In this document: positions 14,301 to 52,519 of the stretch, piece by piece | Layout of the letters: the number at the start of each line of letters is the position of its first letter | How positions within the stretch are numbered: position 1 is the first letter of the stretch | IMG/VR virus record: IMGVR_UViG_3300018022_000003 | Location: 63,427 to 127,426 of that record | From: a virus | DNA: 64,000 nucleotides | Reading direction: 5' to 3' (one strand) | Notes under the pieces: model-generated | Seen by the model: the letters and a program-made list of their open reading frames with translations, nothing else | The model's database searches: none | Told to the model about the DNA's origin: nothing | Translations under genes and position numbers: made by a program

Positions 14301-14888
14301 GGCATGCCTGCGGCCGCCGTCCTCCTGACCGACTCCCAGACCGGGCTGTCGCTGGAGTACGCCGTCAGCGGCGAGTTCATGGCAGCGGCGATGGCAGGGC
14401 TTAACACCAACCCGGCCAACGACGTGGCGACCACCCTGACCAACCAGGACCTCGTCGGGTTCAGCAGGCTGCTCGTGCAGTACGACGACGCAACCATGAA
14501 CCTGATGGCCTCGGACGGGCTGGTCTGCCTCACCAACAACAACGGGGCGCTCTACATCCGCCACTACAAGAGCACGGACCCGAGCAACCCCATCACCTCG
14601 GAGCCGACCTGCACCACGGTCACCGACTACGTCTGCCAGCAGTTCCGCATCGACCTCCAGCAGTTCATCGGGAGGAAGATGGTGGACGGCCTGACCACGG
14701 ACATCCAGGTGGTAAGCGACGCCAGGCTGAAGTCCTTGCAGAACAACCAGATAATCTCTGGCTACAAGAACCTCGTTGTGGTCCAGGACCCGACGGACCC
14801 GACCACGGTGGACGTGACGGTCACGTTCAAGCCGATGTTCAGCCTGCTCTACATCTCGGTCACCTTCACCGTGACCACGACACTGTAA
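11340..14888 (+). CDS. contractile tail sheath protein with large inserted domains (1182 aa)
   Basis: YAPPGVY N-terminus; C-terminal sheath fold (AAAMAG..GFSRL..GLVCL..TTVTDYV..FIGRK..VTVTFKPMFSLLYISVTF). Confidence 0.85.
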   Translation: MALFGSYAPPGVYTSVVISGAGIPLFGNVRIPVVIGEGQEFFEQDNVELHRGSSSVADEQVVNENISDQVTDITNHLHCTYFPVVIGDGTGTVTDDPSKVQVVVDGIPATVIQLDGTTGDFYTQELITPGQNVEITYYFKRTDTLISNEDESDQVPSFAAWQAYDTNQNYLPISVQLPGVTGSNVTVIVTDDTLDSPPGTGVLDTQAIGGAGTDTITLDIAKVGGGKRTLHDFYNLIQAGIPTNDAGYLTAQPPVLAGSPPVLSAMYPATYRLQGGYGPNTNKVFKVQHVPIVDGSNGGVVTTDPTKVEALVNGSKATVSAVDGQHGLVTLANGVVAGSTLTLTYYTNTYQNTYDLLPASSVSSIVEVGLGPNRADFIEDTDYVLGKDSSGNDTINWGASTTTAVGQSTTGYTPFGPVQIKTTLVDERVWLRPTIRGSCNGTNLVFTLPDSPTDHGTVTDDPTKIMVFVGVNPVEALDNYLPGTSERVITLSGSTGDFTLYKAPLLGTHVYASYYRNTLNDHSYTATVVNPGIPGQGTYTVKDEVSRVLPVAWFDAPSSSVTQSGEFAQTGIVWPYAFPDLYDSPGEVDETVTLTFQDDGLHRDANPGAQAYLTTQGILFFCTTPGVGGDAISVAFNTTGTYGVVVAGNGITFNGVTTTTQVLALAGAGISTTFGTVLAQLVTVGSVSTAAALNLDGGVDPSDPEPYSIRYIVTSSSPKGSSGMGYLDQTYIDQNTGFKLTVVSPQDALDYGYQSLPDPQYTFEPGDTLVFQVSSEQARYTGTTYSPYSLSQPNNLVCIAGLQTEVITTFGANTGDTAIIQTFNKSGNEPAIGEYYFVSFQTDKTPADMAIKLYSKASDAYAAYGQPTTVNRLSLGVQFLTQNGAQQFGCIQVPKQPGMNTGSDANFIAAIQTLTTALPGSTQKANVIVPLSTSTTVHQFLSRQLITQANVRNKGEAIGFVGYSTYTDPNTARANARALKNARMIAIGMPAAAVLLTDSQTGLSLEYAVSGEFMAAAMAGLNTNPANDVATTLTNQDLVGFSRLLVQYDDATMNLMASDGLVCLTNNNGALYIRHYKSTDPSNPITSEPTCTTVTDYVCQQFRIDLQQFIGRKMVDGLTTDIQVVSDARLKSLQNNQIISGYKNLVVVQDPTDPTTVDVTVTFKPMFSLLYISVTFTVTTTL

Positions 14889-14945: not shown

Positions 14946-15410
14946 ATGCAGATAAATCCAGTCGTTACACAGGCAGGCGGGGTAATCAGCGTCCGCCTCC
15001 AGGCCTTGTTCATCGGCGACCCCACGGACGCCACGGACAAGACCCTGATTGCGGCGTATGGGGACCCGCAGATATCGCTGGTCGGGAACGGCACCTTCGT
15101 AGGGCCGGTGCCCAATGCCAGCCCCCCGGCCACCTTCAGCTTCACCTTCCCCAGCAGCGAGTACTACGTGGGGATAACGACCAAGATGTCCTCCCAGAGC
15201 CTCCGGTTCATGACGTCGCTGCCGACCGTACCCCCGCTCGGCAACCCCAATGCACCGGCACCCATGCAGGGGCCGCTGGACTGCATCACCATCTACCCTG
15301 CGGCCGCACTGGACATCTGGTACACAGCGATGGTCAATGCCATCACTACGGCCATGACGGCCCTGAGGAACCTTGCCCCCGTGCCGCCCCTGCCGCCAGT
15401 GGACGTTTAG
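14946..15410 (+). CDS. hypothetical, probably virion protein
   Basis: Follows sheath in the operon. Confidence 0.55.
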   Translation: MQINPVVTQAGGVISVRLQALFIGDPTDATDKTLIAAYGDPQISLVGNGTFVGPVPNASPPATFSFTFPSSEYYVGITTKMSSQSLRFMTSLPTVPPLGNPNAPAPMQGPLDCITIYPAAALDIWYTAMVNAITTAMTALRNLAPVPPLPPVDV

Positions 15411-22184: not shown

Positions 22185-23084
22185 ATGGCCTTTCCCAAGA
22201 CGGCGAATGCGGTGGTCAGAGAGCCGGTGCTCTCCTCCCATGACTGGGAGAGGGCGTGGGGGAGCCTCGCCTTCCATATCCCCCTGTCCCCGGAGGCCAG
22301 GGGTTTCTGGAAGACCGCCTCGTCCGCCCAGAGCAAGTACCTGCTGAGCCACTGCACCATCATGTCCTCCGTGGCCACGGAGGAGGAGCCCTACGACTAC
22401 CTCATCCGCCCTGCCAGCGCCCACCTGGTGAACAACAACGACGACGCCTGGTCCAACGAGGTCATGAGGATGTCCCACCGTACCTTCGTGGGGGCGTTCA
22501 ACTTCGTGGAGCACTTCCAGAACTCGAAGTACGCCAAGGGGCATATTATCGACAGCATCCTGCGGAGGATACACCTTACCCAGGACCCCAGGGACAGCGT
22601 CTACTTCGTGGACATCCTGGTCGCCACGGACCTCTCCCACAGGAAGCTGGCGAACGACATACGGACCGGCAGGGTCAAGTACCTCAGCATGGGGTGCGTG
22701 ACGGACCTCGTCATCTGCTCCTTCTGCGGCCAGAGGGTGGCCGACGCAGGCTCCTACTGCCACCACCTCCAGTTCAACAAGGGGGCCTTCCTGCCCGACG
22801 ACGACGGCGTGCCGAGGCGGATAGCCGAGCTTTGCGGCCACAAGTCCCTGCCAGGAGGCGGGGTACGGTTCGTGGAGGCGTCCTGGGTACAGACCCCGGC
22901 GTTCCCAGGGGCGGTCAAAAGGTCCATAGTGGCGGAGGAGTGGCTCGGCCCTGCCACCCAGTACACCCGGCAGGTGGCCTCGGACGAGGAGTTCGCCAAG
23001 GCAGCCTCGGAGAACGACAACTACCAGGGCCTTAATGTGGGAGAGTACCTCCTCTCCATGGACGACGGGAGGAACCTAAGATAA
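22185..23084 (+). CDS. prohead (capsid maturation) protease
   Basis: NNNDDAW..FVEH..G.IID..LSMGC..CSFCG..CHH..FVEASWV..PAF; His/Ser assemblin-type pattern; upstream of scaffold and capsid. Confidence 0.8.
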   Translation: MAFPKTANAVVREPVLSSHDWERAWGSLAFHIPLSPEARGFWKTASSAQSKYLLSHCTIMSSVATEEEPYDYLIRPASAHLVNNNDDAWSNEVMRMSHRTFVGAFNFVEHFQNSKYAKGHIIDSILRRIHLTQDPRDSVYFVDILVATDLSHRKLANDIRTGRVKYLSMGCVTDLVICSFCGQRVADAGSYCHHLQFNKGAFLPDDDGVPRRIAELCGHKSLPGGGVRFVEASWVQTPAFPGAVKRSIVAEEWLGPATQYTRQVASDEEFAKAASENDNYQGLNVGEYLLSMDDGRNLR

Positions 23085-25276
23085 TGGCAGGACCCAACCC
23101 CCTAATCGCCGCCTACCAGCGCAAGCTGGCCGAGCTGGGCGAGCTTGACAGCGAGATAAACAGGCTGGACATGACCCTCCCCGAGGGCGAGGGGGGGAAG
23201 ACCTTCGACTACCTTGCCCAGAAGCGCCAGGAGATAGAGCGTGAGATACGGGGCATGAAGGAGAAGATTGACCTCCTGTCCGCCTGGCAGAGGCTCAAGG
23301 AGGGCATGCACTGGTCCGAGGGCCTCCGCTCCCAGCTAGACGGCCTGGACGAGAGCATAGGGGAGATAGCCACCAGCAGGTCCGCCGAGGGCGGGGCCGG
23401 GGAGGCCGGGGCACTACCCCCGGAGCAGCCCCCTGCCGAGGCCCCGGAGCAGCCTGCGCCTGCGCCAGAGGCACCCCCCGAGCCTTCCCCCACCGAGGAA
23501 ACACCGCCTCCGCCACCCCCAGCGCCCGTCCAGGCGGCCAAGAAAGACAACTATCCGATTCCTGATAAGAAGGGCAGTAGTGGCCCTAACCCTGAGAGAG
23601 GAAAGACTATGGCAAACGATTCCAAGACCTCGCTGAAGACAGCGCTAGCCGACATGAAGGCCAGCAGGGAGGCGGTAACCAGGGAGGCCAAGACCCGTGT
23701 CGCAGCCGCCTGGACCATCGCCAAGACCATGCTGCCCACAGCGCCCCCGGAGGCGCAGAAGGCCTTTGCGCAAACGCTGCTGGCGAACGGCACCAAGGCG
23801 CTGATTGCGGCCCTGAAGCAGACCGCCGTCAATGCCCACTATACCAAGGTGGCCGAAGAGTTCAAGAAGGTCCACAAGGTCGAGCTGAACGACCTGCTTG
23901 AGGACCCCTCCGTCCTGACCAAGGAGAAGGGAGCTGTCAAGTCCGAGGTCAAGGGCGACCCGAAGAGCGCCACCGGGAAGCAGGCAGACGACCGTAAGGA
24001 CTCCGGCCCCCAGCCCTCGACCTACAACGACGGCCGTGGCTGCGGCGGCGGCACCCACTCCGAGCCGAAGGAAGTCGATGCAGGCAAGGCTGCGGAGCGC
24101 CCAGGGGCAGGAGAGCGCCCCGGCGACACCGTGAACCTGTCCGAGGGCAAGTCCGCTGGCAAGGAGAGCGACAAGGCGGACGAGAAGCTGGAGAAGGCCA
24201 AGGCGAAGCAGGAGGTCAAGGACGCCAAGAAGGACGCCTCTGCCAAGACGGCCCAGCCCGTTCCTCCCCCGGCACCGCCCGCAGCACCGCTCGCACCGCC
24301 CGCCGAGGGCGGGGCAGCACCGCCAGCGGAGCCTCCTGTCGAGGAGACGCCCGCTGAGGAGCCTCCCGCCGACATCCCGCCCGTCGAGGGCGAGGGCGCA
24401 CTCCCGCCCGCACCCCCTGCCGAGGGGGGGGCGGCCGAGATGGTGACCGAGGAGAAGATTAAGGACATCGTCGAGAAGGTCGAGGAGGTCGCCGAGGAGA
24501 TTAAGGAGCTTGAGAAGGACATCTCTACGGAGACCAGGGAGGGCGAGGAGGTCCCTGAGGGCGTCCTTGAGACCGAGGGCAAGGAGCTGGAGGAGACCGG
24601 AGAGCAGCTTGAGGGGGAGGGCGAGTCCCTGGAAGGAGAGGGGGAGGCGCTCAACCTCGACAGCATCTTCAACGAGGAGGCCATCGACGACAAGACCTCC
24701 GCACTCGCCAACGAGGGGGACAACTCCGGGGCAGAGTTCTTTGCACCCTCTGCCGCCGTGGAGCTGGAGGCCGCCATCGACGACAGCGGCATGGGCAGCA
24801 TCCAGGACATGTTCTCCGTCGTAGGCTCCGACGCCGACCCGCTGGCAGCCCTGCTCGACGTCAAGACGGCTGCCCAGGTGGCAGGCATAGACGTGGTCCC
24901 CAGCTTCACCGGGGAGGCGGCCAAGAAGTTCCAGAGCGACACGGCCGGCAGCGACGGCAGGGACTTCGAGGACGACCACTCCGCCACCCTGTGGGCAGAG
25001 GTTATCAAGACCTCCGACCTGCCGGAGTTCAAGGACTCTGGCCCTGGCAAGGGCCCCGTCCGGGTCCCGCAGGACTCCCAGCCCAAGCTGGAGTCCCCCA
25101 AGGACGGCGAGGCACCCTCTTCCCAGGGCAAGGCGGCCGCCAAGCCCGCTGACAAGAAGGCCCCGGCTACCCTGAGGAAGATAAAGCCGGTTATCGCCTC
25201 CGACAAGGACGCCGTCCGCAGCATCGACCTCGCCGACGCCCTGTTCGGGGACGGCGGTGCCGGAGAGGGCCGGTAG
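23084..25276 (+). CDS. capsid scaffolding protein
   Basis: Acidic, Pro/Ala-rich, coiled-coil; between protease and capsid; TAATG coupling. Confidence 0.7.
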   Translation: MAGPNPLIAAYQRKLAELGELDSEINRLDMTLPEGEGGKTFDYLAQKRQEIEREIRGMKEKIDLLSAWQRLKEGMHWSEGLRSQLDGLDESIGEIATSRSAEGGAGEAGALPPEQPPAEAPEQPAPAPEAPPEPSPTEETPPPPPPAPVQAAKKDNYPIPDKKGSSGPNPERGKTMANDSKTSLKTALADMKASREAVTREAKTRVAAAWTIAKTMLPTAPPEAQKAFAQTLLANGTKALIAALKQTAVNAHYTKVAEEFKKVHKVELNDLLEDPSVLTKEKGAVKSEVKGDPKSATGKQADDRKDSGPQPSTYNDGRGCGGGTHSEPKEVDAGKAAERPGAGERPGDTVNLSEGKSAGKESDKADEKLEKAKAKQEVKDAKKDASAKTAQPVPPPAPPAAPLAPPAEGGAAPPAEPPVEETPAEEPPADIPPVEGEGALPPAPPAEGGAAEMVTEEKIKDIVEKVEEVAEEIKELEKDISTETREGEEVPEGVLETEGKELEETGEQLEGEGESLEGEGEALNLDSIFNEEAIDDKTSALANEGDNSGAEFFAPSAAVELEAAIDDSGMGSIQDMFSVVGSDADPLAALLDVKTAAQVAGIDVVPSFTGEAAKKFQSDTAGSDGRDFEDDHSATLWAEVIKTSDLPEFKDSGPGKGPVRVPQDSQPKLESPKDGEAPSSQGKAAAKPADKKAPATLRKIKPVIASDKDAVRSIDLADALFGDGGAGEGR

Positions 25277-26332: not shown

Positions 26333-27334
26333 ATGGCAAACCTTTCCCGCACTCAACAGCAGACGGCAATGCTAGGCCAACTGCTGAAGACGGCCGGCGG
26401 CCGGCAGAAGCTAGCCGCTAGCCTCGGACCGTCCCTCCGCAGGCGTCGTGACTACATGAGCATCGCACGCAAGGCGCTCATGGTCGAGACCCTGCCGGAC
26501 GGCGCTCTGCCCATCTACGACAAGGAGTTCGACATTGCCGCCCAGACCGTTTCCGGTCCTGCGGGCGGGTCCTTTGTCGAGGCCTTCGTGGTGGGCGAGG
26601 AGGGCGGCGACATCGTTCGGGTCACCAAGCCGAAGCGTGTCACCGTTCCGACGTTTGAAATCGTGTCGAACCCGATGATTCCCATCACGCAGATTAAGGA
26701 GCGTCGGTTCGACCTGGTCGCCCGCTCCCTCAACCTGGCGAAGGCCGAGGTTGGGGCAGCCGAGGACGGGTACGTCTTCGGGCTGTTCGACGCCGTGGCA
26801 GCCGCAGCCAACGCCCAGGTGGTGCTGGACAACGCAGCCAGGGCCGGCAGCGGCCTGTTCGACCCCGTCTACAACGGGGACATAGCCATCAGCCCGCCCA
26901 TCGACCTCAACTCGATGGCTGACGGCTTCGGGCAGGTGCAGCGGCACGACCTGTCTGTGGCGTTCTGCTTCTTCAACCCGAGGGACTACACGGACCTCCT
27001 GAAGTGGACGCAGCAGAACATCGACCGTGAGACGCAGCGCAAGCTGCTCAAGACCGGCGTCATGGGATACCTGTGGGGAGCCACCCTCCTCCAGTCCCGT
27101 AAGGTCGGCTTCGGGTGCGTCTACATCCTGGCGGACGCCGAGTTCCTGGGCGTCATCCCGGAGCGTATCCCGCTCACCGTCATGTCCGCCGACAGGCCGG
27201 ACCTCAGGCAGATTGGGTTCAGCATCTTCGAGAGCCTGGGCTTCCTGGTGTTCAACCCCTCCGGCGTGCAGCGGCTCACCGTCACCGGGCGCTACAAGGC
27301 CTGGGACGGCTCGACCAACCAGGGCGAGAACTAA
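26333..27334 (+). CDS. major capsid protein (HK97 fold)
   Basis: GRQKLAASLGPSLRRRRDY..VETLPDGALPIYDKE..VPTFEI..IKERRFD; 333 aa; followed by a terminator. Confidence 0.85.
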   Translation: MANLSRTQQQTAMLGQLLKTAGGRQKLAASLGPSLRRRRDYMSIARKALMVETLPDGALPIYDKEFDIAAQTVSGPAGGSFVEAFVVGEEGGDIVRVTKPKRVTVPTFEIVSNPMIPITQIKERRFDLVARSLNLAKAEVGAAEDGYVFGLFDAVAAAANAQVVLDNAARAGSGLFDPVYNGDIAISPPIDLNSMADGFGQVQRHDLSVAFCFFNPRDYTDLLKWTQQNIDRETQRKLLKTGVMGYLWGATLLQSRKVGFGCVYILADAEFLGVIPERIPLTVMSADRPDLRQIGFSIFESLGFLVFNPSGVQRLTVTGRYKAWDGSTNQGEN

Positions 27335-28556: not shown

Positions 28557-29540
28557 ATGGCCTTTGCAAGCCTCCCATCCAGCCTGGACACTAGGCTCTG
28601 GGTACAGGTTCCCGTAATCGTCCTCCACCCTCCGTACACGAAGGTGGCGATAAGCCTCCCGGAGCTGGTGAGGCAGACGAACGCCTTCAGCGTGAAGCGG
28701 AGGGCAGGGTGCCAGCCTACCCTGAAGCGGAGCCGTCCCAAGGAGCTTTACCTGGAGTACAACGTGGTGTGCCACGAGAGCTACTCCGACCCCCGTGGCC
28801 ATGACGTGCAGGTCCAGTTCGACCTCTCCCAGGTGGAGGAGACCCAGGACGCCAAGAGGCTGGACGTAAGGGTAAGCTGCTCCTGCCCGGCGTTCCTCTA
28901 CTGGGGGGCGCAGTGGAACCTCCATCAGCGGGACGGGCTGCACGGGCAGGCCCGCCCCCTCCTCCAGGCACCGACTCAGAGGCTCGACCTGCGGGGGAAC
29001 TTCGTCATCTGCAAGCACGTCAAGGCCGTGTTCGAGCGCATACTGCCGGCCATCCAGCACAACATCACCAAGGTCGTGCGTGAGCGGGAGGTGAAGCGCA
29101 CCAAGGAGCGCATGCTGAAGGAGGAGCGCCCGACCGAGAAGGAGAAGCGCCTGCACCGGGAGCAGATGGAGATGAGGATGAAGAAGGACATCGACCGCAT
29201 CCTCAGGACCAGGGACCCGGACGAGAGGGAGAGGCTGATAAAGGAGCTGGTGGAGAAGGAGAAGAAGCGCCTCTACAAGCAGGTGGAGACGGAGCGGGGG
29301 GAGAGGCCCAGGAGGAAGCCCCCTGCCGTGCCCCGGCCATCCCCCCCGGCGGCCCCAGGCCCTCCCCCCGAGGAGAAGAAGAAGGTCGTCAAGAGGGACG
29401 AGCCTGCCACTGCCCCCCCCAAGCCCCCCGTGCCTCCCAGGCCCCCCAGGGAGGAGCCTGGCCTGGAGGACCTGGTCAAGGAGGAGGAGAGGAAGCTGCG
29501 GGCCAGGAAGCCCCCCGAGAAGGGAGGGGTGCGCAAGTGA
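28557..29540 (+). CDS. SWIM zinc-finger protein
   Basis: VSCSCPAF...CKH. Confidence 0.75.
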   Translation: MAFASLPSSLDTRLWVQVPVIVLHPPYTKVAISLPELVRQTNAFSVKRRAGCQPTLKRSRPKELYLEYNVVCHESYSDPRGHDVQVQFDLSQVEETQDAKRLDVRVSCSCPAFLYWGAQWNLHQRDGLHGQARPLLQAPTQRLDLRGNFVICKHVKAVFERILPAIQHNITKVVREREVKRTKERMLKEERPTEKEKRLHREQMEMRMKKDIDRILRTRDPDERERLIKELVEKEKKRLYKQVETERGERPRRKPPAVPRPSPPAAPGPPPEEKKKVVKRDEPATAPPKPPVPPRPPREEPGLEDLVKEEERKLRARKPPEKGGVRK

Positions 29541-31672
29541 TTACAGCGATAGTGAACGCCCCGTACTCCAACCGTATCCAGCTCGCCCTGGAGGGATGGG
29601 TAGGGCCCTTCGTGCGCCCGCTCAGCCCCCCTGTCCCCTTCGACCCCACGGACCCCAAGGTCCTGGAGGTGTACATAGACGGCAGGCCCGCCAGGGTCAG
29701 CACCTTCTCCTTCGACAGCATCAACAACCGCTACCTGCTCTTCATGGAGGACGCCTTCGACCCCTCCACGGCGGTGGTCCAGACCATACACCACATGCCC
29801 AAGCCCCCGTACCAGTACGGGGTGCCCGTGCCGGCCAACCCCATCCCAGCCATCACCAGCCTCGACCCCCCGTCGGCCCCCTCCGGCCACAGCGCCCAAG
29901 TGCTGACCATAGACGGCGCAGACTTTATGCCTACCTCCACTGCCACCTACAACGGCGTCCCCCACACCTTTACCTACGCCTCCGCTGGCCAGGGGGCCAT
30001 ACCCCTTACCTCGGGCGACCAGGCGGCGGCGGGCAGCTACCCCGTGGTGGTCACCAACCCCCCTCCCGGAGGGGGGGCGTCCAACGCCGTGGACTTCAGC
30101 GTCGTCTCGTCCCTGCTGCCCGCCCTCTACATAGGCGACGCCGACAACGGGGCAGTCCGCCTCGTTGACCAGGCCGGGGACATCCACACCCCCGTGTTCG
30201 CCAGCGCCGACCCGCTGCTCTCCTATACCCAGGGCATATGGGCACCGCTCAACTTCGCAGCCGGGGCAGGCGGAAGCCTCTATATCCTTGACGCCAACAC
30301 AGTAGGCATATGGCAGGTAAGCACGTCCTATGTAATGACCAGGGTGGCCGGCACCGCTACCGGGACGACCGGCACCCCCATCCCCGGCCCTGCCACGAGC
30401 AGCCCGCTCCCCACCGAGCCTTGGCTGGCCGCCGACCCCTCGGGCAACCTGTTCGTCGGGGACTTCCAGCACCACAAGGTCTATGCCGTCAACATGCAGG
30501 CCTCCCCCCAGACCATCCTCGGGGTGAGCATCGCCGCAGGCGACATCGCCCTGGTGGCAGGCACGGGCACGGCAGGGTTCAGCGGCGACGGCGGGCCGGC
30601 GCTCAGCGCCACCTTCCGCTACCCGCAGGGCCTTGCCTGCGACTCCTCCGGCAGCCTGTACGTGTGCGACGAGCAGAACTACTGCGTGAGGAAGATTGAC
30701 ACCTCGGGCAACATCAGCACAGTGGCGGGGCAGGGGCATGTCTACGGGCAGGCAGGGGACGGCGGCCTGGCTACCCTGGCCACCATGACGGAGCTTTACG
30801 GCCTGGGGATAGACCCCAGCGGCAACCTCTACATAGCGGACATGGACTCCCCCAAGATACGGGCCGTCAACATGACGGGCGGGCCTGCCGTCATCTGCGG
30901 CATAGCCATAGCGGCCGGGCACATCGACACCGTGGCAGGCACGGGGACGGCGGGGGATACCGGCGACGAGGGCCCCGCCATCTCGGCGGAGATAGGCGCA
31001 AACATACTACAGCTCTGCACCGACGCTTCCGGCAGCCTCTACCTCACGGACTTCTACAACAACCGTGCCAGGAGGGTGGACTCGGGCGGCACGATACATG
31101 CCTTCGCAGGCACGGGGACGGCGGGGTACAGCGGGGACGGGGGCGCAGCCACGGCCGCCGACCTGGGGGAGGCAGAGGGCATAATATACCTCCCTGCCCC
31201 CGTGCAGAGCACCCCGACCTTCACGGTCGGCCTGGTGCCCAGCACCCCCCTGCCCCACACCCTGTCCTATGCCACCGAGAACAGCCTGACGGCGTCCCTG
31301 GCGTCCCTGGGCGGGAACTCCGTGCCAGCCGCCAAGACCAACGTAGGCTACCTGGAGGAGAGGGGCGGGGACGCCGACATCCTGAGCCTGGACATGGCCT
31401 CCTTCCCGCAGCTATTCTACCTGGACTGCCACGGGTACTCGGGCATGGCGTCCCTCGCCCTGGCGGGAACCTACGTGACATACCTCAACGCCAACTCCTG
31501 TGCCCTAGGCCAGGCGTCCGTGGACGCCGTGCTGGTGGCCCTGGACGGGAACGGCCTGCTCAACGGGACCGTCAACCTCGGCGGGGCAGGGAACTCCGCC
31601 CCCTCCGCCACGGGGCTTGCCGCTGCCAGCAGCCTGCAAACCAGCAAGGGATGGAGCGTGACCCACAACTAG
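29537..31672 (+). CDS. IPT/TIG plus NHL-repeat beta-propeller protein (fibre/appendage candidate)
   Basis: PAITSLDP..VVVTNP IPT domain; repeated VAGTG.AG.SGDGG.A..A...P.G.A.D.SG.LY NHL repeats. Confidence 0.8.
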   Translation: MITAIVNAPYSNRIQLALEGWVGPFVRPLSPPVPFDPTDPKVLEVYIDGRPARVSTFSFDSINNRYLLFMEDAFDPSTAVVQTIHHMPKPPYQYGVPVPANPIPAITSLDPPSAPSGHSAQVLTIDGADFMPTSTATYNGVPHTFTYASAGQGAIPLTSGDQAAAGSYPVVVTNPPPGGGASNAVDFSVVSSLLPALYIGDADNGAVRLVDQAGDIHTPVFASADPLLSYTQGIWAPLNFAAGAGGSLYILDANTVGIWQVSTSYVMTRVAGTATGTTGTPIPGPATSSPLPTEPWLAADPSGNLFVGDFQHHKVYAVNMQASPQTILGVSIAAGDIALVAGTGTAGFSGDGGPALSATFRYPQGLACDSSGSLYVCDEQNYCVRKIDTSGNISTVAGQGHVYGQAGDGGLATLATMTELYGLGIDPSGNLYIADMDSPKIRAVNMTGGPAVICGIAIAAGHIDTVAGTGTAGDTGDEGPAISAEIGANILQLCTDASGSLYLTDFYNNRARRVDSGGTIHAFAGTGTAGYSGDGGAATAADLGEAEGIIYLPAPVQSTPTFTVGLVPSTPLPHTLSYATENSLTASLASLGGNSVPAAKTNVGYLEERGGDADILSLDMASFPQLFYLDCHGYSGMASLALAGTYVTYLNANSCALGQASVDAVLVALDGNGLLNGTVNLGGAGNSAPSATGLAAASSLQTSKGWSVTHN

Positions 31673-31673
31673 C

Positions 31674-34487
31674 ATGAGCCTACTGCGCCCCAGCATCGTC
31701 TACCTGTCGAGCAGCGAGAACCCCTCCCTGACCGGCGACAACGTGACCTTCACGGCCGACGTGTACCCCAGCGTCACGGTGGTGCAGAGCACCAGCGGCA
31801 CCAACGGGCTGTACTCCCCCTCCGTGACCCTCACCCTCGGGAGCTTCCCCACCCTGGGCAACACCCTCCTGGTGTTCGGCGGCATCCCCATCTCGGCGGC
31901 CGGCGCTGCCTCCGCCCTAGGGTTCACGGCGGCGGCGACGTACTACGGCTCCGGAGGCTCGTCCTTCGTCCTTACGAGGACCGTCCTGCCGGGGGACGGC
32001 AAGAGCTGGACGGTGTCCGGCCTCCCCTTCAACAACGTGGCCAACCAGGGTAGGGTATTCCTGCTGGAGATACAGGGCACCCCCAGCATCCTCGCCGACG
32101 CAGGGGTGACGGCAGGCAGCCAGTACTACTACACCGCCCCGCTGTCCACCTCGGCCGTCTTCGGCGGGCCGGGGCTTGCCATAGCAGGGTTCTGGCACTA
32201 CTTCCTCGGCAACGTGGAGAACATCCTCCCCACGGCCTACTCCTACCCCTCCTGGCTAGGGGGTACAGGGGCCGGGTATGATATCGTGGCCTGCAACGGG
32301 GACGTCCCCGCCAGCACCGCCGTGACGGCCACGCTCCTCTCCACGGTGGACAGCGGCATCATAGGGCAGGCGGTGTACGTGGACATCATGCTGCCCATCC
32401 CTACCGTCCCTACCGGGCACGTGGACTTCTACGACAGCTCCAGCCCCCCTGGGTACATGGGCACCGGCACGCTGTCCGGCAGGCAGACCTCCATATCCTC
32501 CTCCTCCCTGCCGGTAGGCAGCCAGACTATCACCGCTGCCTACAGCGGCGACTCCGGCTTCCTGCCCGGCAGCGGCAGCCTGGTGCAGACGGTCAGCTCC
32601 GGCACCTCCCCGACGACGACCTCCGTCGCCAGCAGCCAGGACCCCTCCGTGCAGGGGCAGGCGGTCAAGTTCACCGCCACGGTCTCCCTTGCGCCCGAGC
32701 TGGTCCAGTACAAGGGGGCATACTCCAGCCAGGCTGGGCGGTACGGCTTCCCCGTCTCCGTTACCCTCACCAGCAGCCCTACGGCCGGCAACACCCTCAT
32801 AGCCCTGGCCAGCCTGTCGGAGCCGTACAGCGACTACTACTTCGACCTCCCTGCGGGGTTTACCGAGCTAGCCTCCTATAGGCCGGGCGTCAACATACGC
32901 AACAGCGAGATAGTAGGCTACCGCATAGCCCAGGGCGGGGACCCGGCGACATGGAGCTTCCCCTGCAACACGGGGTCGGACGTGGCCCCGGGCCAGGTCT
33001 ACATCTTCGAGTTCCTGGGGCAGCCCACGGTGCAGGCATCGTGCGGGGCGGCAGGCACCCAGGGCACATACCCGACCCCTCCCCCCCTCCCGGTCACCAC
33101 CGGCTCCATCGGCTCCAGCAGCCCCTTCATAGCCATCTGCCAGTTCATGAAGTGGATGATGGCCGCCCCCTACGACTGGAACCCGGCCTTCTCGGAGATG
33201 GGGGGACCGTACGAGCCTTACACGGACGCCCATCCCTGGGAGCTGGTGGGGGCGTCCCTTGCCAGCGGCCCTGTGACCGCCATGATGGGCGCAGGCTCGG
33301 CGGAGACGGTAGGGTACGCCCTCATCCTGCTCAACTACAGCAGCCAGGTCAGCGGCACGGTGAACTTCTTTGACAGCTCTAGCCCTCCCGGCTACCTGGG
33401 GAGCGCCGACGTCTTCAATAGCCAGGCATCCGTCTCGACCTCCCTGCTCCCCGTGGGGCTTCAGACCATAACGGCGGACTACCTGGGCAACGCCGTCTTC
33501 CTGGCCAGCAGCGGGAGCACGCCGCAGACCGTCACCGCCGCCCCGCTGGTAGCGGTGGACGGCACCCCCAACCCGAGCTACGTGGGCAGCCCCGTCACCA
33601 TCGACGTGTCCGTCTCGGGCAGCAGCGGCACCCCCACCGGCACCGTGACCATCGCCGACGGCCTCGGCTCCCCTCCCTATGTCATAGGCACCATTACCCT
33701 GTCGGGGGGGAGCGGCTCCCTCGTCACCTCCTCCCTGTCGGCCGGCAGCCACACCATCTGGGCGCTGTACAACGGGGACGTCAACTACCCCGCCGCCTCC
33801 AGCTACTACATCCAGGTGGTGGTGGACAAGTACGCCCCCGTGGTGGGCATCGCCAGCGACCACAACCCCCAGTTCTTCGGGCAGGAGCTTACGCTGACCG
33901 CCACGGTATCCCCCCCCGCAGGGGTGCTTACCCTCCCTACCGGCACGGTCACCCTGACGGATTCCGTGACGGGCGGCATGGGCACCTATGCCCTCCCCCC
34001 CTCGGGCACCGTGCAGTGGACCATGGACCCCTCCAGCCCGTGGGCCGTGGGGACGCACCTGGTGACGGCGTCCTACAGCGGGGACGCTCACTACTACCCC
34101 GGCACGGCCACCCTCTCCCAGCTCATAGTCGCAGAGGGGGGCATATACGCCGACCTGCCGGGGTTCGCCCTGGTGGCCTACTGCTCACCGGGGGGGGACG
34201 ACAGCCTCCCCCCCTGGGCGTCCTTCGTCGCCGACCCCTCCACAGCAGCGGCGGGGCAGCCCGTCTACCTGCTGTGGACCGGCCTCAACATCGCCTCTGT
34301 CAGGATGTACGGCGACAACGGGGTGGGGGACTCCCTGGACACGGGGGTGCTCCAGACCAGCGGCTCCGGCATCTATACTGTTTCCAACGGCTTCCAGCAT
34401 AGCATAACCCTTAGCTGCGTCGCCTACGACTCCTCCGCCCCCCCGGACGTGGTGGCGTCCCAGGCCTTGGCCATCACCGTCACGTAG
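31674..34487 (+). CDS. bacterial Ig-like (group 3) repeat protein, probable virion appendage
   Basis: Four S.NPS..G..VT.TA.V...TG.V.F..L..G...ITA.Y.GD repeats. Confidence 0.8.
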   Translation: MSLLRPSIVYLSSSENPSLTGDNVTFTADVYPSVTVVQSTSGTNGLYSPSVTLTLGSFPTLGNTLLVFGGIPISAAGAASALGFTAAATYYGSGGSSFVLTRTVLPGDGKSWTVSGLPFNNVANQGRVFLLEIQGTPSILADAGVTAGSQYYYTAPLSTSAVFGGPGLAIAGFWHYFLGNVENILPTAYSYPSWLGGTGAGYDIVACNGDVPASTAVTATLLSTVDSGIIGQAVYVDIMLPIPTVPTGHVDFYDSSSPPGYMGTGTLSGRQTSISSSSLPVGSQTITAAYSGDSGFLPGSGSLVQTVSSGTSPTTTSVASSQDPSVQGQAVKFTATVSLAPELVQYKGAYSSQAGRYGFPVSVTLTSSPTAGNTLIALASLSEPYSDYYFDLPAGFTELASYRPGVNIRNSEIVGYRIAQGGDPATWSFPCNTGSDVAPGQVYIFEFLGQPTVQASCGAAGTQGTYPTPPPLPVTTGSIGSSSPFIAICQFMKWMMAAPYDWNPAFSEMGGPYEPYTDAHPWELVGASLASGPVTAMMGAGSAETVGYALILLNYSSQVSGTVNFFDSSSPPGYLGSADVFNSQASVSTSLLPVGLQTITADYLGNAVFLASSGSTPQTVTAAPLVAVDGTPNPSYVGSPVTIDVSVSGSSGTPTGTVTIADGLGSPPYVIGTITLSGGSGSLVTSSLSAGSHTIWALYNGDVNYPAASSYYIQVVVDKYAPVVGIASDHNPQFFGQELTLTATVSPPAGVLTLPTGTVTLTDSVTGGMGTYALPPSGTVQWTMDPSSPWAVGTHLVTASYSGDAHYYPGTATLSQLIVAEGGIYADLPGFALVAYCSPGGDDSLPPWASFVADPSTAAAGQPVYLLWTGLNIASVRMYGDNGVGDSLDTGVLQTSGSGIYTVSNGFQHSITLSCVAYDSSAPPDVVASQALAITVT

Positions 34488-39511: not shown

Positions 39512-40102
39512 CTATACCCCCCTGCCCCTGAGCACATGGGAGACGGTGACCGCCAGCAGCAGCAGGTCGTAGGCAAGCCCCCTGCGGCGGCGGTAGCAGC
39601 GGTGCAGGCGCACCTCGTACCCCCTCCCCAGCGAGTTGACCCTCTCCCGCCCCACGAGCTGGGACAGCCCTGTGATGCCGGGGGGCATGTCCAGGCAGTC
39701 GGAGTAGCCGGGCACCGTCCTGGACAGGTGCTCGGCTATGCCGTACTCGTCCGGCCGTGGGCCGACCATGCTCATGTCGCCCACGAGGACGTTCCAGAGC
39801 TGCGGCAGCTCGTCCAGGTGGGTGCGCCGCAGCAGCCACCCCAGCGGGGTCACCCTGGGGTCGCCCCTCTCCACCAGGTCCAGCCTGCGGGCCGAGCCGT
39901 TGCGCATGGTCCGCAGCTTGTACATGGTGAAGGGCCTGCCGTGCCTGCCCATCCGCTTCTGCCTGAACAGGGCGGGCCCGGGGGAGGTCAGGCGCACGGC
40001 GGCGGCCAGGGCGGCAAGGAGCGGGGACACGGCCGCCAGCAGCAGCACGGCCAGGGCCACGTCGAGCGCCCGCTTGGCATGGTAGTACCTGGCGTCCGCC
40101 AC
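39512..40102 (-). CDS. monotopic phosphoglycosyl transferase (bacterial sugar transferase family)
   Basis: KRALDV..F.Q.R.G..G..F..YKLRTM..DPRVT..G..LR.T.LDELPQL.NV..GDMS.VGPRP..PGITG. Confidence 0.92.
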   Translation of the reverse strand: MADARYYHAKRALDVALAVLLLAAVSPLLAALAAAVRLTSPGPALFRQKRMGRHGRPFTMYKLRTMRNGSARRLDLVERGDPRVTPLGWLLRRTHLDELPQLWNVLVGDMSMVGPRPDEYGIAEHLSRTVPGYSDCLDMPPGITGLSQLVGRERVNSLGRGYEVRLHRCYRRRRGLAYDLLLLAVTVSHVLRGRGV

Positions 40103-40113
40103 TATCCCTCCCC

Positions 40114-41569
40114 CTAGCGTGGGTGCGGCCCCCCTGCGCAGTAGCATATGGCCCTGCCGCTCGCCCTCGCCTTCCTCAGGCGCTCCTCCCTGCGGGCCTC
40201 GGCCGCAATCTGGTTCGCCCGGTTCCACATCTGCGCCCAGGATATGCTGACCTCGTGCCTGCACCCCTTGGGGCGCAGCCTCAGCCCCCATGCCTCCACG
40301 TGGGCCACCATCAGGCGCTTCCCCACGAGGAGCGGCGTCTCCAGGCACAGCTTGGTCTTGCGCCTCAGTATGCTGGTCATCGGTACCTTCCCCTCCTTGG
40401 CCCCTGCCCTGCCACGTGCCCTGCGATAGCGCCCATGTTCCCTGCGATGCCCAGGATGGCGGCCACCGCTACGAGGAGCACTGCCGCTACCGCCGACAGG
40501 AGCGCCACCTCCAGCCAGTCTACCGCATACCAGTTCACCATGGCTGCCCTTCCTACTCTATGGTCATCACCACGAGGCCCCTGTCCTCCAGCGACACGGT
40601 GACCACCGTGCCGGGCGGGAGGGGGCCTGCGCAGTGCCATACCGACACGTGGTAGCGCCCCTTGGGGAACTCCATGTCCCTCGTCCATGCCGTCCCCCCG
40701 CCGTCCGTGAGGCATGCCACGGGGGCACGGCTCCTGAGCACCAGGACGGTTGCGTCCTGCGGCCCCTGGTGCTTCCACCACTCGACCTTCACGCCCGCCC
40801 CGCTGTCCTCCATGTGCCCCCAGGACACGAGGCGGTTGCCGTTGCTAGGCATCCTTGCGGTCCCCCGGTGCCTCCCCTGGGAAGTATACCCCCAGGTCCC
40901 TGACCATCTGCACGATTGCCTCGCACATGTCGATGTCGAACCACCCCTCGTCCGGCACGGGCCTGACGGAGTAGCTGCGCAGCTTGCCGGACTCCTTGAG
41001 GCGCTGGAGGCCTGCCGTGAACTCCTGGTAGTCGTCGTAGCTGAGCATGGCCCTGAAGGCCCGCTCCTCGTCCGGCACGGCGACCTTCGCCCTGGAGCCG
41101 AGCAGCATCCTTACCTCGAAGAGGCAGGTGTTGTCGGTCACCCTTATGGCCTCCAGGATAAGCTCGTCCATCCCCTGCCTCCCCCCCGTGAAGGGGAAGC
41201 CTGCCTTGTCGTCCCGCTCCCTCTTGTGCATCCCTGCCCCCCTCAGTACCAGTGCTCCGTCAGCTCGCTGACCAGCTTCCTTATCTCCCCGCCGATGACG
41301 GAGGCGTATGCGGGGGAGATTACCTCCCCCTCGGGGTAGTCCTGCCCGTTCATCAGCCTGTAGAGCCGCTTGATGATGCGGATGGTCGTGGCATCGACGT
41401 GCTCCTCCCACTCCGGCTCGAAGCCGTCGCTGGGCCTGCGCACGTCTATCCATCCCATGCCGTCGCCGATGGTGCCGGTCAGCATGTCCGTCTTCCTGCC
41501 TTCCTCCCTGGGCACGCCGCACCTTACCGTTCCGCATGGTACACAGTTGAACTCGCTATGGGTTTTCAC
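40114..41569 (-). CDS. run of about five small hypothetical genes (40114-40380, 40377-40541, 40553-40852, 40845-41231, 41243-41569)
   Basis: Consecutive RBS-led minus-strand ORFs with overlapping stops and starts. Confidence 0.55.
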
Positions 41570-42113
41570 TGGTCTCCTTCTCCGCCAGCCGGTATGCCCC
41601 CAGGTACCTGTCCCTTACCGACGCATCGACTCCGTATCCCCTCGGCAGCCGGTTCAGCTTTATCAGCTCTACCACGTCCGCAAGGTCCTTCTGCCTTCCC
41701 GAGGACAGCTTGGTGGATACGAGGTCTTCGAGGGTGAGCAGCAGGGGCCTTCCCGATACCTTCGTGGGCATAGGCAGGGAGAACTTCCCCCCCTTGGACA
41801 CCGTGCTCCCCCCTTGCAGGAGGTCTACCGGCACCCTGGTCTCCCTGTCCGTCACGGTCATCCCCGACCCCTGGTTCTTCCTGAACAGCCCGCTCTGCTG
41901 GAGACGCCAGATTGCCTCCGCAGGGTCCGGCACGATGATGTCCACGTCGATGGTCATCCTGGGGTACCCGTGCTCCTGCACGGCGAACCCGCCACAGACG
42001 TAGTGCGGTATGCCCCACCCTGCCAGGACGCCCACGGCCTTCCTCAGGGTCCTGGTCAGGGCGGTCGTGCCCGTCGCCCTCCTCAGGAACTCCGCCTTGA
42101 GGTTCATCGGCAT
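41556..42113 (-). CDS. nucleotidyltransferase (AbiEii/DUF2204-like, Pol-beta superfamily)
   Basis: GGFAV..HG.PR.T.DVD and K..SGRQKDLADV motifs. Confidence 0.8.
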   Translation of the reverse strand: MPMNLKAEFLRRATGTTALTRTLRKAVGVLAGWGIPHYVCGGFAVQEHGYPRMTIDVDIIVPDPAEAIWRLQQSGLFRKNQGSGMTVTDRETRVPVDLLQGGSTVSKGGKFSLPMPTKVSGRPLLLTLEDLVSTKLSSGRQKDLADVVELIKLNRLPRGYGVDASVRDRYLGAYRLAEKETSENP

Positions 42114-45432: not shown

Positions 45433-48162
45433 TACACGTAGATACATATTTCTACATGTTTTTCTTGGCAGGCTTATCCCGCTTCTTATCAGGCACTTCC
45501 GCTTCCGGCCGCCTGTAGCACTTCGGGCAGCGCTCCAGCTTTGCGATGCTGTTCCCGCACCCTGGGCAGACGCTCCCTATCGAGTATGCCATCACTGCCT
45601 CCCTCTGCATGGGTCCCTCGGGGGCACCATGCCCCCCCTCTCGCATACGTCATGGAGGTACAGCACCCTGTGCCTGGCCCCCCGCCTGCCCACCAGGGTT
45701 ATCCCCCGGCGTGGGACGCCGGCCCCGTAGAGCCTGTTGCAAGGGGGCCTTCCACGCAGCAGGTGGCCCACTACCACCTGCCTGCACCTGGTGCATAGCC
45801 CCAGGAAGTACGGTACCCTCTTCATGGCAGCGCTCCCTCTAGTCATACCAGCACCTTGCATAGCGCTTCCCTACCTCGAACTCGTCGGCCCTCCCGAAGG
45901 CCTCCCTGAACGCCTTCCCCTCCCTGGTGCCGACCCTCCCCTCCTTCTCCAGCCCCTCGATGGTAAGGCGGACGTCGCCCCTGTCGGGGGAGACAGCGTA
46001 GCCGTGCGCCGTCCAGGAGGGGTGCTTGCGCATGAACCCCAGGAAGGCGGCGTTGCCGGGGCAGTTGTTCCAGGGTCCCTCTGAGGCGACCCCCAGGCGG
46101 GTCAGCCTCTCCAGCGCCCTCAGGCTCAGCCCCTTGAAGTTCCGGGTGCCGCCGCAGGGGAACCCGCTGGGGCTGGAGCCGAAGCGCTCCTTCCAGTAGG
46201 CGTCGGACTTGGCGAAGAAGGGGGCGAGTATCAGGTCCCTCTTGTCGTATACCCCGTTGCCCAGGGCCTTCCTCACCTGCCTGTCCAGGGCGATGTCCCA
46301 GAACGGCATCGCCCGGACCAGCCTCTCCGTCCTCGGGCTGTTGAACCGGTAGGTGTCCATGTCGGGCAGGGCCAGGGGGCCGTCGGAGTTGCCGGGGGTC
46401 GTCATCACGCAGCGCTCGCACTGGCGCATGCACCACTTGTTCATCTTCTCCCCGGTCCTGGGCCTCCAGTCGGGCTTGCCGTGCCCCCCCTCGTAGGTGC
46501 CGAGGTCCGTAGGGGCCTTTCCCAGGAGGCGGTCCGGGATATAGGCGTGGTTGTCGGGGTCTACCTCCTCGTCCCTCTTGAGGAACGGGAGCGTCCCCTC
46601 CTCTATCTCCTGCATGTCGCTGGTACTGGTGCCGATGCCCACCAGGCTCCCCCCTGCGTCGAAGTACACACGGGGGCGGCACTGGATGCCCCATGCCTTG
46701 CGGCAGTCGTTGTCGCACCCCACCCTTGCGCCCTGTGCGAAGTACACGATGCGCTTCTCAATCATGCCACGGCCTCCCATGCCAGCTTTAGCAGCGTGCG
46801 TTCCACCAGTCCCAGATGCCCTTGCCGTAGATGGCCTCCAGGACGGCCTCGAAGCACCAGTGTGCCTGGTCGTCGTCGTCCTTCCCCTCGGCATGCGCCT
46901 CGACTATCTCCTTCGCCAGGCGCACGACGCCGTCGAAGCTCGGGCTGGCAAGCGCCTCCGGGGGCGCACTGGCCTCCTTCTGCCGCCGCTCCAGCTCGGC
47001 CTTCAGCTCCTCGTCGCTTACCCCCCTCAGCCTGCTTGCCATGCGTATCCCTCCGTTTCAGGGGAGGAGCAGGCCAGGCGCTTACAGCCCCGCCAGCCCC
47101 TCCCGGATTCTCAGCGCCAGAACGGCGCACTTGCCGGCCTCCTGCCTGTTGAACTCTACCTGGACGGTGCTCCACCCCCCTGCCTCTATCCGCCCGTTCC
47201 ACTCCTCCAGGTCCAGCGAGAGCCTCTCCAGCTTCCCTGCCGTCTCCTCCATCAAGGCCTTCATGTTCATGCTGTATCCTCCGTATGCCTCCGCTCAGCC
47301 TCCTGCTCGGCAAGCCGTGCCATCGCCCGTTGCTCGCCGCCACAGGTCCAGCTCGTCCAGCAGGCCCGGCAGCTCGGGAGGAACACCTTCTCCATCGGTG
47401 CGCCTGGGGCCGCACTCGAAGCAGCAGTGGGCGCACTGGTAGCAGCACCTTGTGGTCAGGCGGACCGTGATGACACGCCCCTCCGGGGTCTTCTTACCCA
47501 CTCTTGTCCCCCTGCCACATCTCCTCCGTGTGCCCGCACTCCCTGCACTGCCAGGAGTCGCCCATCACGTCGTGGACCTCCTCCATCCTCTTGCCGCACC
47601 CTGGACAGACGCCAAAGCGGGCGTCCGCCTCCTTGAGTAGCTGCCGCAGGGCCTTACTGACCCTGTATACCCTTTCCTCGGGCTTCTTCTTCCTCCTGGG
47701 GGCCTGGAGGCGGGCCACCACCTCGACATAGACGTCCCCGCTGTCAATGCCCAGAGCCTTTGCCACCCCCCCGCCTACCAGGAGGTCCAGCTTCCCCTGG
47801 CGCAGGGGGACATATCCCTTGTAGCTGAACCGCTTCACTGCCCCTCCAGTGCCTTGATTTTCTCGGGGTCCGCCGCCCTGGCTATGGCTATGAGGTCGGC
47901 CAGGTTGACGTTCAGCAGGCCGGAGGCCCCCTTCACGATAGTCAGGAAGAGGTTGTATCCCCCTACCATGTTGGGGGTCATGCTGGCGTCGCTCAAGCGG
48001 AGGTGGGGCACGCAGCCGTTGTCCAGGCCGTGCCCGTGGACGCACCCGAACACCCCCTGCTTGTCCGGGGTGCGCATGTCGGGCCAGCAGTCCTTGGTTA
48101 TCTCCACCAGGGCCTCGTGAAGGTCGGCGAGCCTGCTCATCGGGGTTGGTCCCTCCGCTATA

Positions 48163-51136: not shown

Positions 51137-51523
51137 ATGATTATAAAGCACTTGACAGCACTCGACACCAAGGCGGCCGCCGATGGCACCTGGACCTGGG
51201 TAGGCAACTGGTCGGCCATGTCCGTCCATATCGTAGGGCTGGAGGGGGACGTCTGGGTGGAGGTCTCGAACGACCCGGCCGCCGACCCGGCCCGCTATGC
51301 CAGCCCCCCCACCATACCGGAGGGGTGCGACATCACCGGCAACCTCACCTCCGGCGGCTCCCCCCCGGCCATCGTCGAGGAGGTCAGCATCGCCTACAGC
51401 CGGGACGGCACGCAGGTCATGGTCAGCCCCTCTGCCCTGGTATGGAAGTGGCTCCGTGTGTGCAAGAGCGGGGGGGGCGCTACCGATACCGTCGCCTACC
51501 TGATGGGCCAGGTGGAGGCCTAG
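51137..51523 (+). CDS. hypothetical beta-rich, possible virion accessory protein
   Basis: GGGAG RBS; V..EVSND and W.RV.K jelly-roll-like pattern. Confidence 0.6.
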   Translation: MIIKHLTALDTKAAADGTWTWVGNWSAMSVHIVGLEGDVWVEVSNDPAADPARYASPPTIPEGCDITGNLTSGGSPPAIVEEVSIAYSRDGTQVMVSPSALVWKWLRVCKSGGGATDTVAYLMGQVEA

Positions 51524-52362: not shown

Positions 52363-52519
52363 CTACCCGCCCCTTTCTTAGAGGTCCCCGGTGCCCATCC
52401 AAGAGGGGGGCTTTAGCTCCCCTGGGCCACGAGCCATAGGGACTGCCACTGAACTGGCTCCCGCACCGTGGCAGGGGAGGAGGGGCCGGGACCGGGGAAA
52501 GTCGGTCCTCCTCCCCAAC

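Follow-up and report, generated by a model that had tools for sequence, protein, structure and literature searches.

The window analysed here is a 64,000-nucleotide stretch that forms the final 64 kb of a 127,426-bp IMG/VR contig from an uncultured soil jumbo phage (IMGVR_UViG_3300018022_000003, positions 63,427 to 127,426; contig G000 in the comparisons below). It encodes a set of proteins that carry the tripeptide Ser-Pro-Pro (SPP), together with a cassette of glycosyltransferase (GT) genes. Comparison with the sequences of relatives indicates that SPP, in its fuller form G-S-P-P-[T/V/A], is a genuine loop motif, specific for Ser, that marks particle proteins of those phage lineages that bear the cassette. 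The proteins that share the motif are unrelated to each other: a neck-like protein, an insertion in the tail sheath, an immunoglobulin (Ig)-like fibre, baseplate and fibre proteins, and a 257-residue protein (p257) in which the motif is repeated in tandem. A preliminary description of the window had proposed SPP as an O-glycosylation sequon. The motif, its position in loops and its co-variation with the cassette are borne out, and the sugar on Ser is a proposal made from sequence alone; that the Ser is O-glycosylated by the phage cassette is possible, and we place its probability somewhat short of even.

SPP in loops of unrelated particle proteins

The proteins considered are listed below, with coordinates of the window.
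1505 to 3169, minus strand: P0099, a 554-residue neck or tail-terminator-like particle protein (AlphaFold and Foldseek)
11340 to 14888, plus strand: tail sheath, 1182 residues with large insertions (phrog_2839, E 8e-27)
14946 to 15410, plus strand: 154-residue protein following the sheath gene, one SPP (residue 59)
26333 to 27334, plus strand: major capsid protein, one SPP (residue 187) (phrog_2522, E 2e-40)
29537 to 31672, plus strand: NHL-repeat fibre protein, 711 residues (Pfam TEN_NHL and NHL)
31674 to 34487, plus strand: 937-residue Ig-like fibre or decoration protein with four Big_3_5 domains (Pfam PF16640, E 1.2e-45)
51137 to 51523, plus strand: 128-residue protein on one flank of the cassette, two SPP
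57501 to 58274, plus strand: p257, 257 residues, divergent from the cassette (no Pfam, PHROG or PDB match)

The four domains of the Ig-like protein match PF16640 with 154 bits against a cut-off of 35.5. SPP is found at residues 257, 570, 666 and 746 (DNA 32442-50, 33381-89, 33669-77 and 33909-17), and three of these four sites sit in enlarged β-hairpin loops. The earlier remark that SPP occupies the same hairpin in three of the Ig repeats agrees with the Big_3_5 alignment, in which the loop comprises 8–9 residues as against the usual 5. Because an AlphaFold model of the whole protein, built from an alignment of four orthologs, reached a predicted local distance difference test (pLDDT) score of 34, this placement follows from the Pfam domain and from how the loops compare with those of other Big_3_5 proteins. 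Among the equivalent hairpins in 94 other, cellular Big_3_5 proteins, SPP occurs in 0 of 429 while 327 have the short five-residue loop, and the same proteins are poor in SPP overall (24 against 37 expected). The first two hairpins, with the sequence DSSSPPGY (DSSSPPGY[ML]G), hardly differ from each other and seem to have arisen by an internal duplication, and they are therefore not counted as independent sites. All four SPP are retained in full-length orthologs (81–99% identity), even where the flanks diverge, and a partial ortholog (about 75–79% identity) keeps the first three. More distant phage relatives have GSFSPQ or GSIAPQ at the hairpin position.

P0099 is the most SPP-enriched protein of the window (four SPP, p 5e-5). 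The best Foldseek matches of its AlphaFold model (pLDDT 82, 40-sequence alignment) are neck proteins of the myophages 812, Pa193 and E217, with a Foldseek probability of 1.0 to 8qkh_G, 8q01_M, 9b42_G and 8fvh_M; whole-chain template-modelling scores are low because of inserted domains. An ESM Atlas lead points to terminator families (0.79–0.87). The matches to myophage neck proteins thus identify P0099 as a particle protein, as had been guessed earlier. Its SPP, at residues 161, 181, 211 and 256, lie within an inserted β-rich region, where each precedes a β strand. Mapped onto the model, the sites are predicted to fall in loops or in a low-confidence segment. Orthologs of 63–86% identity keep all four SPP almost without change while flanks and codons vary, the exception being one ortholog with SPM at site 181. 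None of them is present in 30 homologs at 31–56% identity; compared with these distant homologs, two of the SPP segments are insertions confined to the clade, and opposite the other two the homologs have different residues.

In the remaining proteins some of the sites are kept as well. Both SPP of the sheath (residues 196 and 259) are kept in the relatives G002 and G003, whereas the SPP of the following 154-residue protein is kept in G003 and not in G002 or G005. In the NHL-repeat fibre, SPP at residue 30 is part of an N-terminal RP[TL]SPP..FD segment. G002 and G004 retain it, as do at least 13 of the 46 relatives listed, whereas many others have GPL in place of SPP. One SPP of the 128-residue protein is kept in G002 and G004 (46–50% identity). 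The two sheath sites, the RP[TL]SPP segment of the fibre and this last site are thus maintained where the orthologs are only about 45–60% identical.

Outside the contig, G004 encodes an unrelated 1423-residue protein (L105, contig 220359-224630, minus strand) with 12 scattered, non-repeat SPP against 0.99 expected (p 7.5e-10). Its SPP codons are varied, and its resemblance to the sheath and baseplate-J insertions of G000 is limited to short segments.

Co-variation of SPP with the glycosyltransferase cassette

That the phage has a GT operon of its own was noted earlier, and Pfam supports this assignment for four of the genes.
51520 to 56941, minus strand: six-gene GT cassette (Pfam; PDB sequence matches)
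51520 to 52341, minus strand: pyruvyl transferase (Pfam PS_pyruv_trans)
52520 to 54217, minus strand: fusion of GT6 and Galactosyl_T (Pfam)
54210 to 54773, minus strand: 187-residue cassette protein, one SPP (no Pfam match)
54757 to 55464, minus strand: 235-residue cassette protein
55458 to 56291, minus strand: GT11 (Pfam)
56288 to 56941, minus strand: GT2 (Pfam)
56944 to 57369, minus strand: endonuclease VII, between the cassette and the p257 gene (Pfam PF02945)
58546 to 59259, plus strand: sigma-70-region-4-like protein, anchor of the locus comparison (Pfam Sigma70_r4_2)

The PDB sequence matches of the GT6 domain are BoGT6a (4ayj) and ABO transferases. The p257 gene is oriented head-to-head with the cassette, and only the endonuclease VII gene, which is also present in most cassette-less relatives, lies between them. 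Across the 24 members of the p257 family (35–100% identity) there are 81 SPP against 4.8 expected, compared with 0 TPP and 2 APP. Two core motifs, SPP[VI][VI]SPDASG and SPP[IL]..GRPVFDGG, are near-invariant, and beside each of them there are extra tandem SPPx units, the number of which varies among relatives. At every cassette-bearing locus with a detected p257 homolog, p257 adjoins the cassette, and from the sequences the two appear to be exchanged together as one module. Neither p257 nor the 128-residue protein on the other flank obtained a function from Pfam, PHROGs, a PDB profile search or ESM Atlas. Far from the cassette, ahead of the window, the contig has another GT11-like gene (G000 45586-47034, plus strand; L004/L005), which shares 35% identity with the GT11 of the cassette.

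We compared the loci of 44 relatives, anchored on the sigma-like gene. Where the cassette is present, the plus-strand neighbour gene carries SPP in all 14 distinct architectures (33 SPP against 2.2 expected); where it is absent, this is the case in two of nine (3 SPP, with 1.2 expected). The anchor-protein tree implies at least five changes of cassette state. In four to five independent pairs, SPP moves in the same direction as the cassette in 3.4 of 4 on average and never in the opposite direction (sign test, p at least 0.125).

Comparison of whole contigs, with genes called by self-trained models, gave a corresponding picture for 11 contigs (G007 being represented by its first 400 kb). The ratio of observed SPP to the number expected by composition in each contig is as follows.
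Cassette-bearing contigs: G000 2.56, G002 1.02, G004 1.91, G009 1.67, G010 1.47, G012 1.28
Cassette-less contigs: G005 0.55, G006 0.52, G007 0.84, G011 0.40, G013 1.09

Pooled, the six contigs with the cassette hold 120 SPP against 70.6 expected (1.7-fold) and the five without it 49 against 79.8 (0.6-fold; Mann-Whitney p 0.004, uncorrected for descent). The comparison of relatives with and without the cassette, which had been put forward as a check, thus comes out in favour of an association, with two to five independent contrasts behind it. No blastp homolog of any cassette gene was found anywhere on the cassette-less contigs. An SPP excess was seen again in G001, G003, G004, G009 and G010, whereas relatives that lack the cassette but have a comparable guanine-plus-cytosine (G+C) content showed none.

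Neither TPP (1.34 with the cassette, 1.28 without) nor APP (1.51 and 1.21) shows the contrast, and when 5,968 tripeptides were screened without bias for association with the cassette, SPP ranked fifth (z 6.0) and was the top non-repeat tripeptide. Only TGY, TGP, GYT and YTG rank higher, and these derive from a few collagen-like repeat proteins. Since the contrast is present in every protein size class, it is not an artefact of which genes a fragment contains. Nine proteins in the cassette genomes, and none in the cassette-less ones, have three or more SPP. There is also a characteristic context in the cassette genomes, with Gly at position -1 in 28% of cases against a background of 8%, and Thr, Val or Ala at position +1; in the cassette-less genomes Gly precedes 12% of the SPP and the tripeptide has no context of its own.

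The collagen-like proteins with G-x-y repeats (GYT, TGP, GPT) are themselves confined to cassette genomes, none being present in the five cassette-less contigs. They are encoded in G002 (L088, contig 40068-42041, and from 156053 onward), G004 (149989-154587) and G010 (113563 onward), and in G002 one such gene lies between the gene for the 128-residue protein and the GT genes. By analogy with BclA-type glycosylated fibres, the cassette may act on these proteins in addition to, or instead of, those with SPP.

SPP frequency on the contig

On G000 itself (147 genes called by a codon model, third-position G+C about 0.9), SPP occurs 17 times in the eight open reading frames (ORFs) on which the preliminary description was based, 20 times in the window and 32 times on the contig. 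The original counts were reproduced exactly, protein by protein. The three additional sites of the window are found one each in a SWIM protein, in the cassette gene at 54210-54773 (minus strand) and in a doubtful ORF at 60236-60514 (minus strand). In the region 59795-60950, the codon caller chose this short minus-strand ORF (score 14) over long plus-strand frames, and the SPP counted there may be spurious.

The expectation of one to two SPP in the eight proteins was about right, at 2.0 by composition, and rises to 4.2 under a first-order Markov model. The proteins described as free of SPP, namely those starting at 15421 and 19159, the 730-residue protein at 23084-25276 (plus strand) and the terminase, each contain none. 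In the Pro-rich 730-residue protein PPA occurs nine times against 1.0 expected and SPP not once, and Pro richness alone therefore does not make SPP. The comparison of 17 observed with one to two expected is nevertheless post hoc, since the eight "external virion" proteins were in effect picked by having SPP, so that the counts for a virion-specific enrichment stand while the statistics do not. When blocks are delimited by position alone, they hold 10 SPP each, with 3.9 and 4.7 expected, which is the same 2–2.6-fold excess as for the whole contig; the remainder of the window holds 3 where 4.5 are expected, the class labels being partly post hoc here as well. A pattern restricted to the virion further hinges on three proteins of uncertain location, of which one (1505-3169) can now be placed in the neck.

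For the whole contig, 32 SPP compare with 12.5 expected from per-protein composition (2.6-fold; rank 2–3 of about 6,850 tripeptides). Both SP and PP dipeptides are over-represented (PP 237 against 165, 1.4-fold), and when this is taken into account by a first-order Markov model the expectation becomes 19.2, the excess 1.7-fold and the rank 75–79. The excess thus persists after correction but is moderate. P0099, p257 and the Ig-like protein are each individually enriched. SPP enrichment on the contig is real but moderate, and on this contig alone the claim is much weaker than originally stated; the counts were right and the statistics wrong, and it is the comparative data that rescue the core of the observation.

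As many as 21 of the 32 SPP codon triplets on the contig read AGC- or TCC-CCC-CCN, i.e., runs of six or more C, and such runs are a little more frequent than the encoded proteins would lead one to expect (132 against 110 +/- 7). A cause at the DNA level was considered and rejected, as relatives at 52–54% G+C keep the sites with other codons. For the same reason, the C runs are taken to follow from codon bias.

Possible function of the motif

Of the mechanisms considered, O-glycosylation of the Ser of SPP in the cytoplasm by the phage's own enzymes is the likeliest. One transferase, for which GT2 is the candidate, would start the glycan chain, which the Galactosyl_T-like, GT11 and GT6 domains would then extend and the pyruvyl transferase would cap, giving the particle a sugar coat. 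The protein target, the role of Ser as acceptor and the order of the enzymes are all points that we infer. A more elaborate version appears tentative, and distinctly less probable than not. Here, G-S-P-P would be the acceptor sequon of a cytoplasmic phage pathway that places a capped, blood-group-like glycan on neck, sheath and fibres of jumbo phages infecting Acidobacteriota; p257 would be a dedicated substrate or carrier that travels with the cassette; and surface loops would acquire SPP in lineages that gain the cassette and be purged of it in the others. To our knowledge, no acceptor sequence rule has been defined for phage-particle glycosylation, and a defined sequon would be new.

Several observations weigh against glycosylation of the motif. 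The Ser of SPP is never replaced by Thr, whereas many O-glycosylation systems accept Thr as well as Ser. Among solved structures, the closest homolog of the cassette GT2 is PglI, an enzyme that works on a lipid-linked (undecaprenyl-linked) sugar chain, and GT11, GT6 and pyruvyl transferases are typical of clusters for surface polysaccharides. The association between SPP and the cassette is confounded by descent: the independent pairs at the anchored locus are too few for significance to be reachable, and the whole-contig ratios provide about two clean contrasts (G009/G012 with their sister G007, and G010 with G013) on an anchor tree read by eye. Because the cassette and p257 seem to move as one module, their link may trace to a single origin, and the near-invariance of the p257 core motifs may be structural. 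The relative G002 has the cassette yet no overall SPP excess (1.0), although 7 of its 11 SPP fall in four protein families that also carry the motif in G000. Genes for other GT2 enzymes (Pfam) occur in every contig searched, i.e., all but the 98-kb fragment G013, and the contrast is therefore between cassette and no cassette rather than between GT and no GT; a GT-free relative was sought as a control, and all searched contigs turned out to carry Pfam GT2. That the contig-wide excess is only 1.7-fold after dipeptide correction belongs here, as does the capsid protein. Its SPP was part of the original count, but the position is not conserved: of 80 relatives, 41 have NAP there, 24 have SAP and 13 have SPP.

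A purely structural role of SPP is itself doubtful but has to be taken seriously. The motif would then be a loop element that combines a turn at Gly, a cap formed by Ser and a stiff Pro-Pro segment leading into a β strand. It would have spread by insertion and duplication in β-sandwich modules within one phage lineage, and its link to the cassette would reflect descent and physical linkage. The usual position of SPP after Gly and before β-branched residues agrees with this, as do the strands that follow the SPP of P0099, the p257 core motifs, which are invariant in the manner of fold-defining segments, and the apparent duplication of two Ig hairpin sites. The general 1.4-fold excess of PP on the contig, the small number of independent contrasts and the lack of overall enrichment in G002 point in the same direction. 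A structural element would, however, not be expected to recur in unrelated folds while being present at only 0.4–0.8 times the expected frequency in the close cassette-less relatives G005, G006, G007 and G011, or to be under-represented in the 94 cellular Big_3_5 proteins. TPP and APP could play a similar structural role but show no contrast, and the copy number of SPPx in p257 varies freely.

A different target for the cassette, with SPP unrelated to it, is rather unlikely in our estimate, which overlaps with those for a structural role and for other readers of the motif and is not to be added to them. The enzymes would then modify a host surface polysaccharide (phage exclusion or lysogenic conversion) or the phage DNA. 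The kinship of GT2 with PglI suits such a function, and the combination of GT6, GT11, GT2 and a pyruvyl transferase resembles clusters for O-antigen or exopolysaccharide, as is generally known; phage GT clusters that glycosylate 5-hydroxymethylcytosine also exist (bioRxiv 10.1101/2023.12.21.572611). On the other hand, the Pfam matches of the six cassette genes are to transferase families and include no flippase, polymerase or priming transferase, although no dedicated search for these was made and the host could supply them. No Tet/JBP dioxygenase (PF12851) was detected in G000 (41% complete), G002, G004 or the complete G005, which is a weak argument as the control genomes gave no match either. 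Above all, a different target would leave it unexplained that both the frequency of SPP and the SPP-repeat protein p257 track the cassette.

Recognition of SPP by some other trans-acting factor is improbable. Such a reader could be a proline-directed Ser kinase paired with a phosphatase (the preliminary description reports three phosphatases), a prolyl hydroxylase followed by glycosylation of hydroxyproline, or an assembly or decoration protein that binds polyproline loops. The traits of a short linear motif seen here (unrelated proteins, loops, a fixed Ser and variable copies) would suit any reader. Glycosylation of hydroxyproline has a precedent in plant Ser-hydroxyproline motifs, and some plant GT31 enzymes are generally known to galactosylate hydroxyproline. 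But no 2-oxoglutarate-Fe(II) oxygenase of family PF13640 was found on the contig, with 41% of the genome present, and the co-variation is specifically with the GT cassette. Finally, that the excess is a by-product of composition, of codon bias (AGC/TCC-CCC-CCN runs at 65% G+C) and of the post hoc choice of tripeptide and of the eight-protein set is very improbable and largely refuted: the 21 sites in slightly over-represented C runs and the Markov-corrected rank of only about 75 would fit, but the sites persist with other codons at 52–54% G+C, the excess recurs in five relatives and not in cassette-less ones of similar G+C, the unbiased screen singles out SPP, and both the 12-SPP protein of G004 and the p257 family lie far beyond chance.

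Comparison with known glycosylation systems

That phage-encoded GTs glycosylate the particles of mycobacteriophages is an established finding (Freeman et al. 2023, Cell Host Microbe 31:1216, as cited in PMC12363180). The mycobacteriophages Che8, Corndog and Myrna, like the phage studied here, have GT genes of their own, and capsid or tail proteins are the proposed or proven targets in the cytoplasm of the infected cell. The present case differs in that it concerns jumbo myophages of an Acidobacteria type, with GT2, GT11, GT6, Galactosyl_T and a pyruvyl transferase, known from sequence alone. A tblastn search of 50,697 phage records with the cassette GT2 gave three weak matches, none of them to an actinophage; the GT6 matches were all to cyanophage or marine records, and no kinship with the GTs of glycosylating actinophages was seen. 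The mycobacteriophage sites reportedly lie in C-terminal Ser/Thr-rich tails, whereas SPP is a short internal loop motif, and we know of no sequon defined for mycobacteriophage glycosylation.

A closer parallel for the motif itself is the O-glycosylation sequon of Bacteroidetes, D-(S/T)-(A/I/L/V/M/T), which is likewise a three-residue motif found in many unrelated exported and surface proteins. This well-known system is periplasmic, uses a lipid-linked donor and modifies Ser or Thr, whereas SPP is restricted to Ser, based on proline and, if used, would be modified in the cytoplasm. With respect to the enzymes, gene groups with GT6 and GT11, in part with a methyltransferase, are present in T4-like cyanophages such as Prochlorococcus phage P-SSM2. 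Homologs of the GT6 domain (32–36% identity) were found in 72 cultured phage records, nearly all of T4-like cyanophages, and several are located beside GT11 or methyltransferase genes. The enzyme set thus recurs in unrelated phage groups; we know of no substrate for it in cyanophages. The same enzyme families, as is general knowledge, occur in O86-type O-antigen clusters of E. coli and, with BoGT6a, in Bacteroides ovatus, and would build a fucosylated glycan capped by Gal or GalNAc. Those enzymes act on lipid-linked or free oligosaccharides and are accompanied by genes for a priming transferase, flippase and polymerase, none of which is among the Pfam matches of the phage cassette. BclA of Bacillus spores, in which G-P-T repeats are known to be O-glycosylated on Thr, has a counterpart in the collagen-like G-x-T repeats that only cassette-bearing relatives encode. 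The likeness does not extend to this contig, which has no collagen-like gene and where SPP resides in globular, β-rich proteins.

Phage-particle glycosylation is known from only a few mycobacteriophages. If the Ser of SPP is indeed glycosylated, the motif would make it possible to predict from soil metagenomes which phages have a sugar coat and which of their proteins carry it. The cassette and its 257-residue substrate would make a compact system testable in E. coli, and possibly a tool for site-directed glycosylation. The question is also relevant to how phages of Acidobacteriota, which are abundant but little known, interact with both their hosts and the organic matter of soils. Should SPP prove to be structural only, it would stand as a caution that enrichment of a tripeptide in virion proteins needs both dipeptide and phylogenetic controls.

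Phage family and further features of the contig

The contig has a G+C content of 65% and an estimated completeness of 41%. Its gene set includes the tail sheath, major capsid protein, large terminase, NHL-repeat fibre and the protein with four Big_3_5 domains, and Baseplate_J and He_PIG proteins are encoded in its first half. The capsid protein has more than 140 relatives on phage contigs from soil and peat, up to 463 kb in size. The nearest cultured relative is the jumbo myophage Tunturiibacter phage Tunturi_5 (PP885688, 309 kb), with 69% identity in the capsid protein and 54% between its sigma-like protein and the product of 58546-59259. Because the host of Tunturi_5 belongs to Acidobacteriota (PMC11924767), this phylum is the likely host of the phage family; the Ig domains of the 31674-34487 protein are also similar to acidobacterial proteins. 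The anchor locus of Tunturi_5 lacks a GT cassette, and in the position of p257 it has a gene annotated as a virion structural protein.

The contig contains one run of 21 G and one of 12 C. Since runs in called coding sequences are at most eight nucleotides long, both are probably intergenic. Among the remaining genes of the window, 6203-7210 (plus strand) encodes a Ku-like DNA end-binding protein (phrog_4873, E 7e-27).

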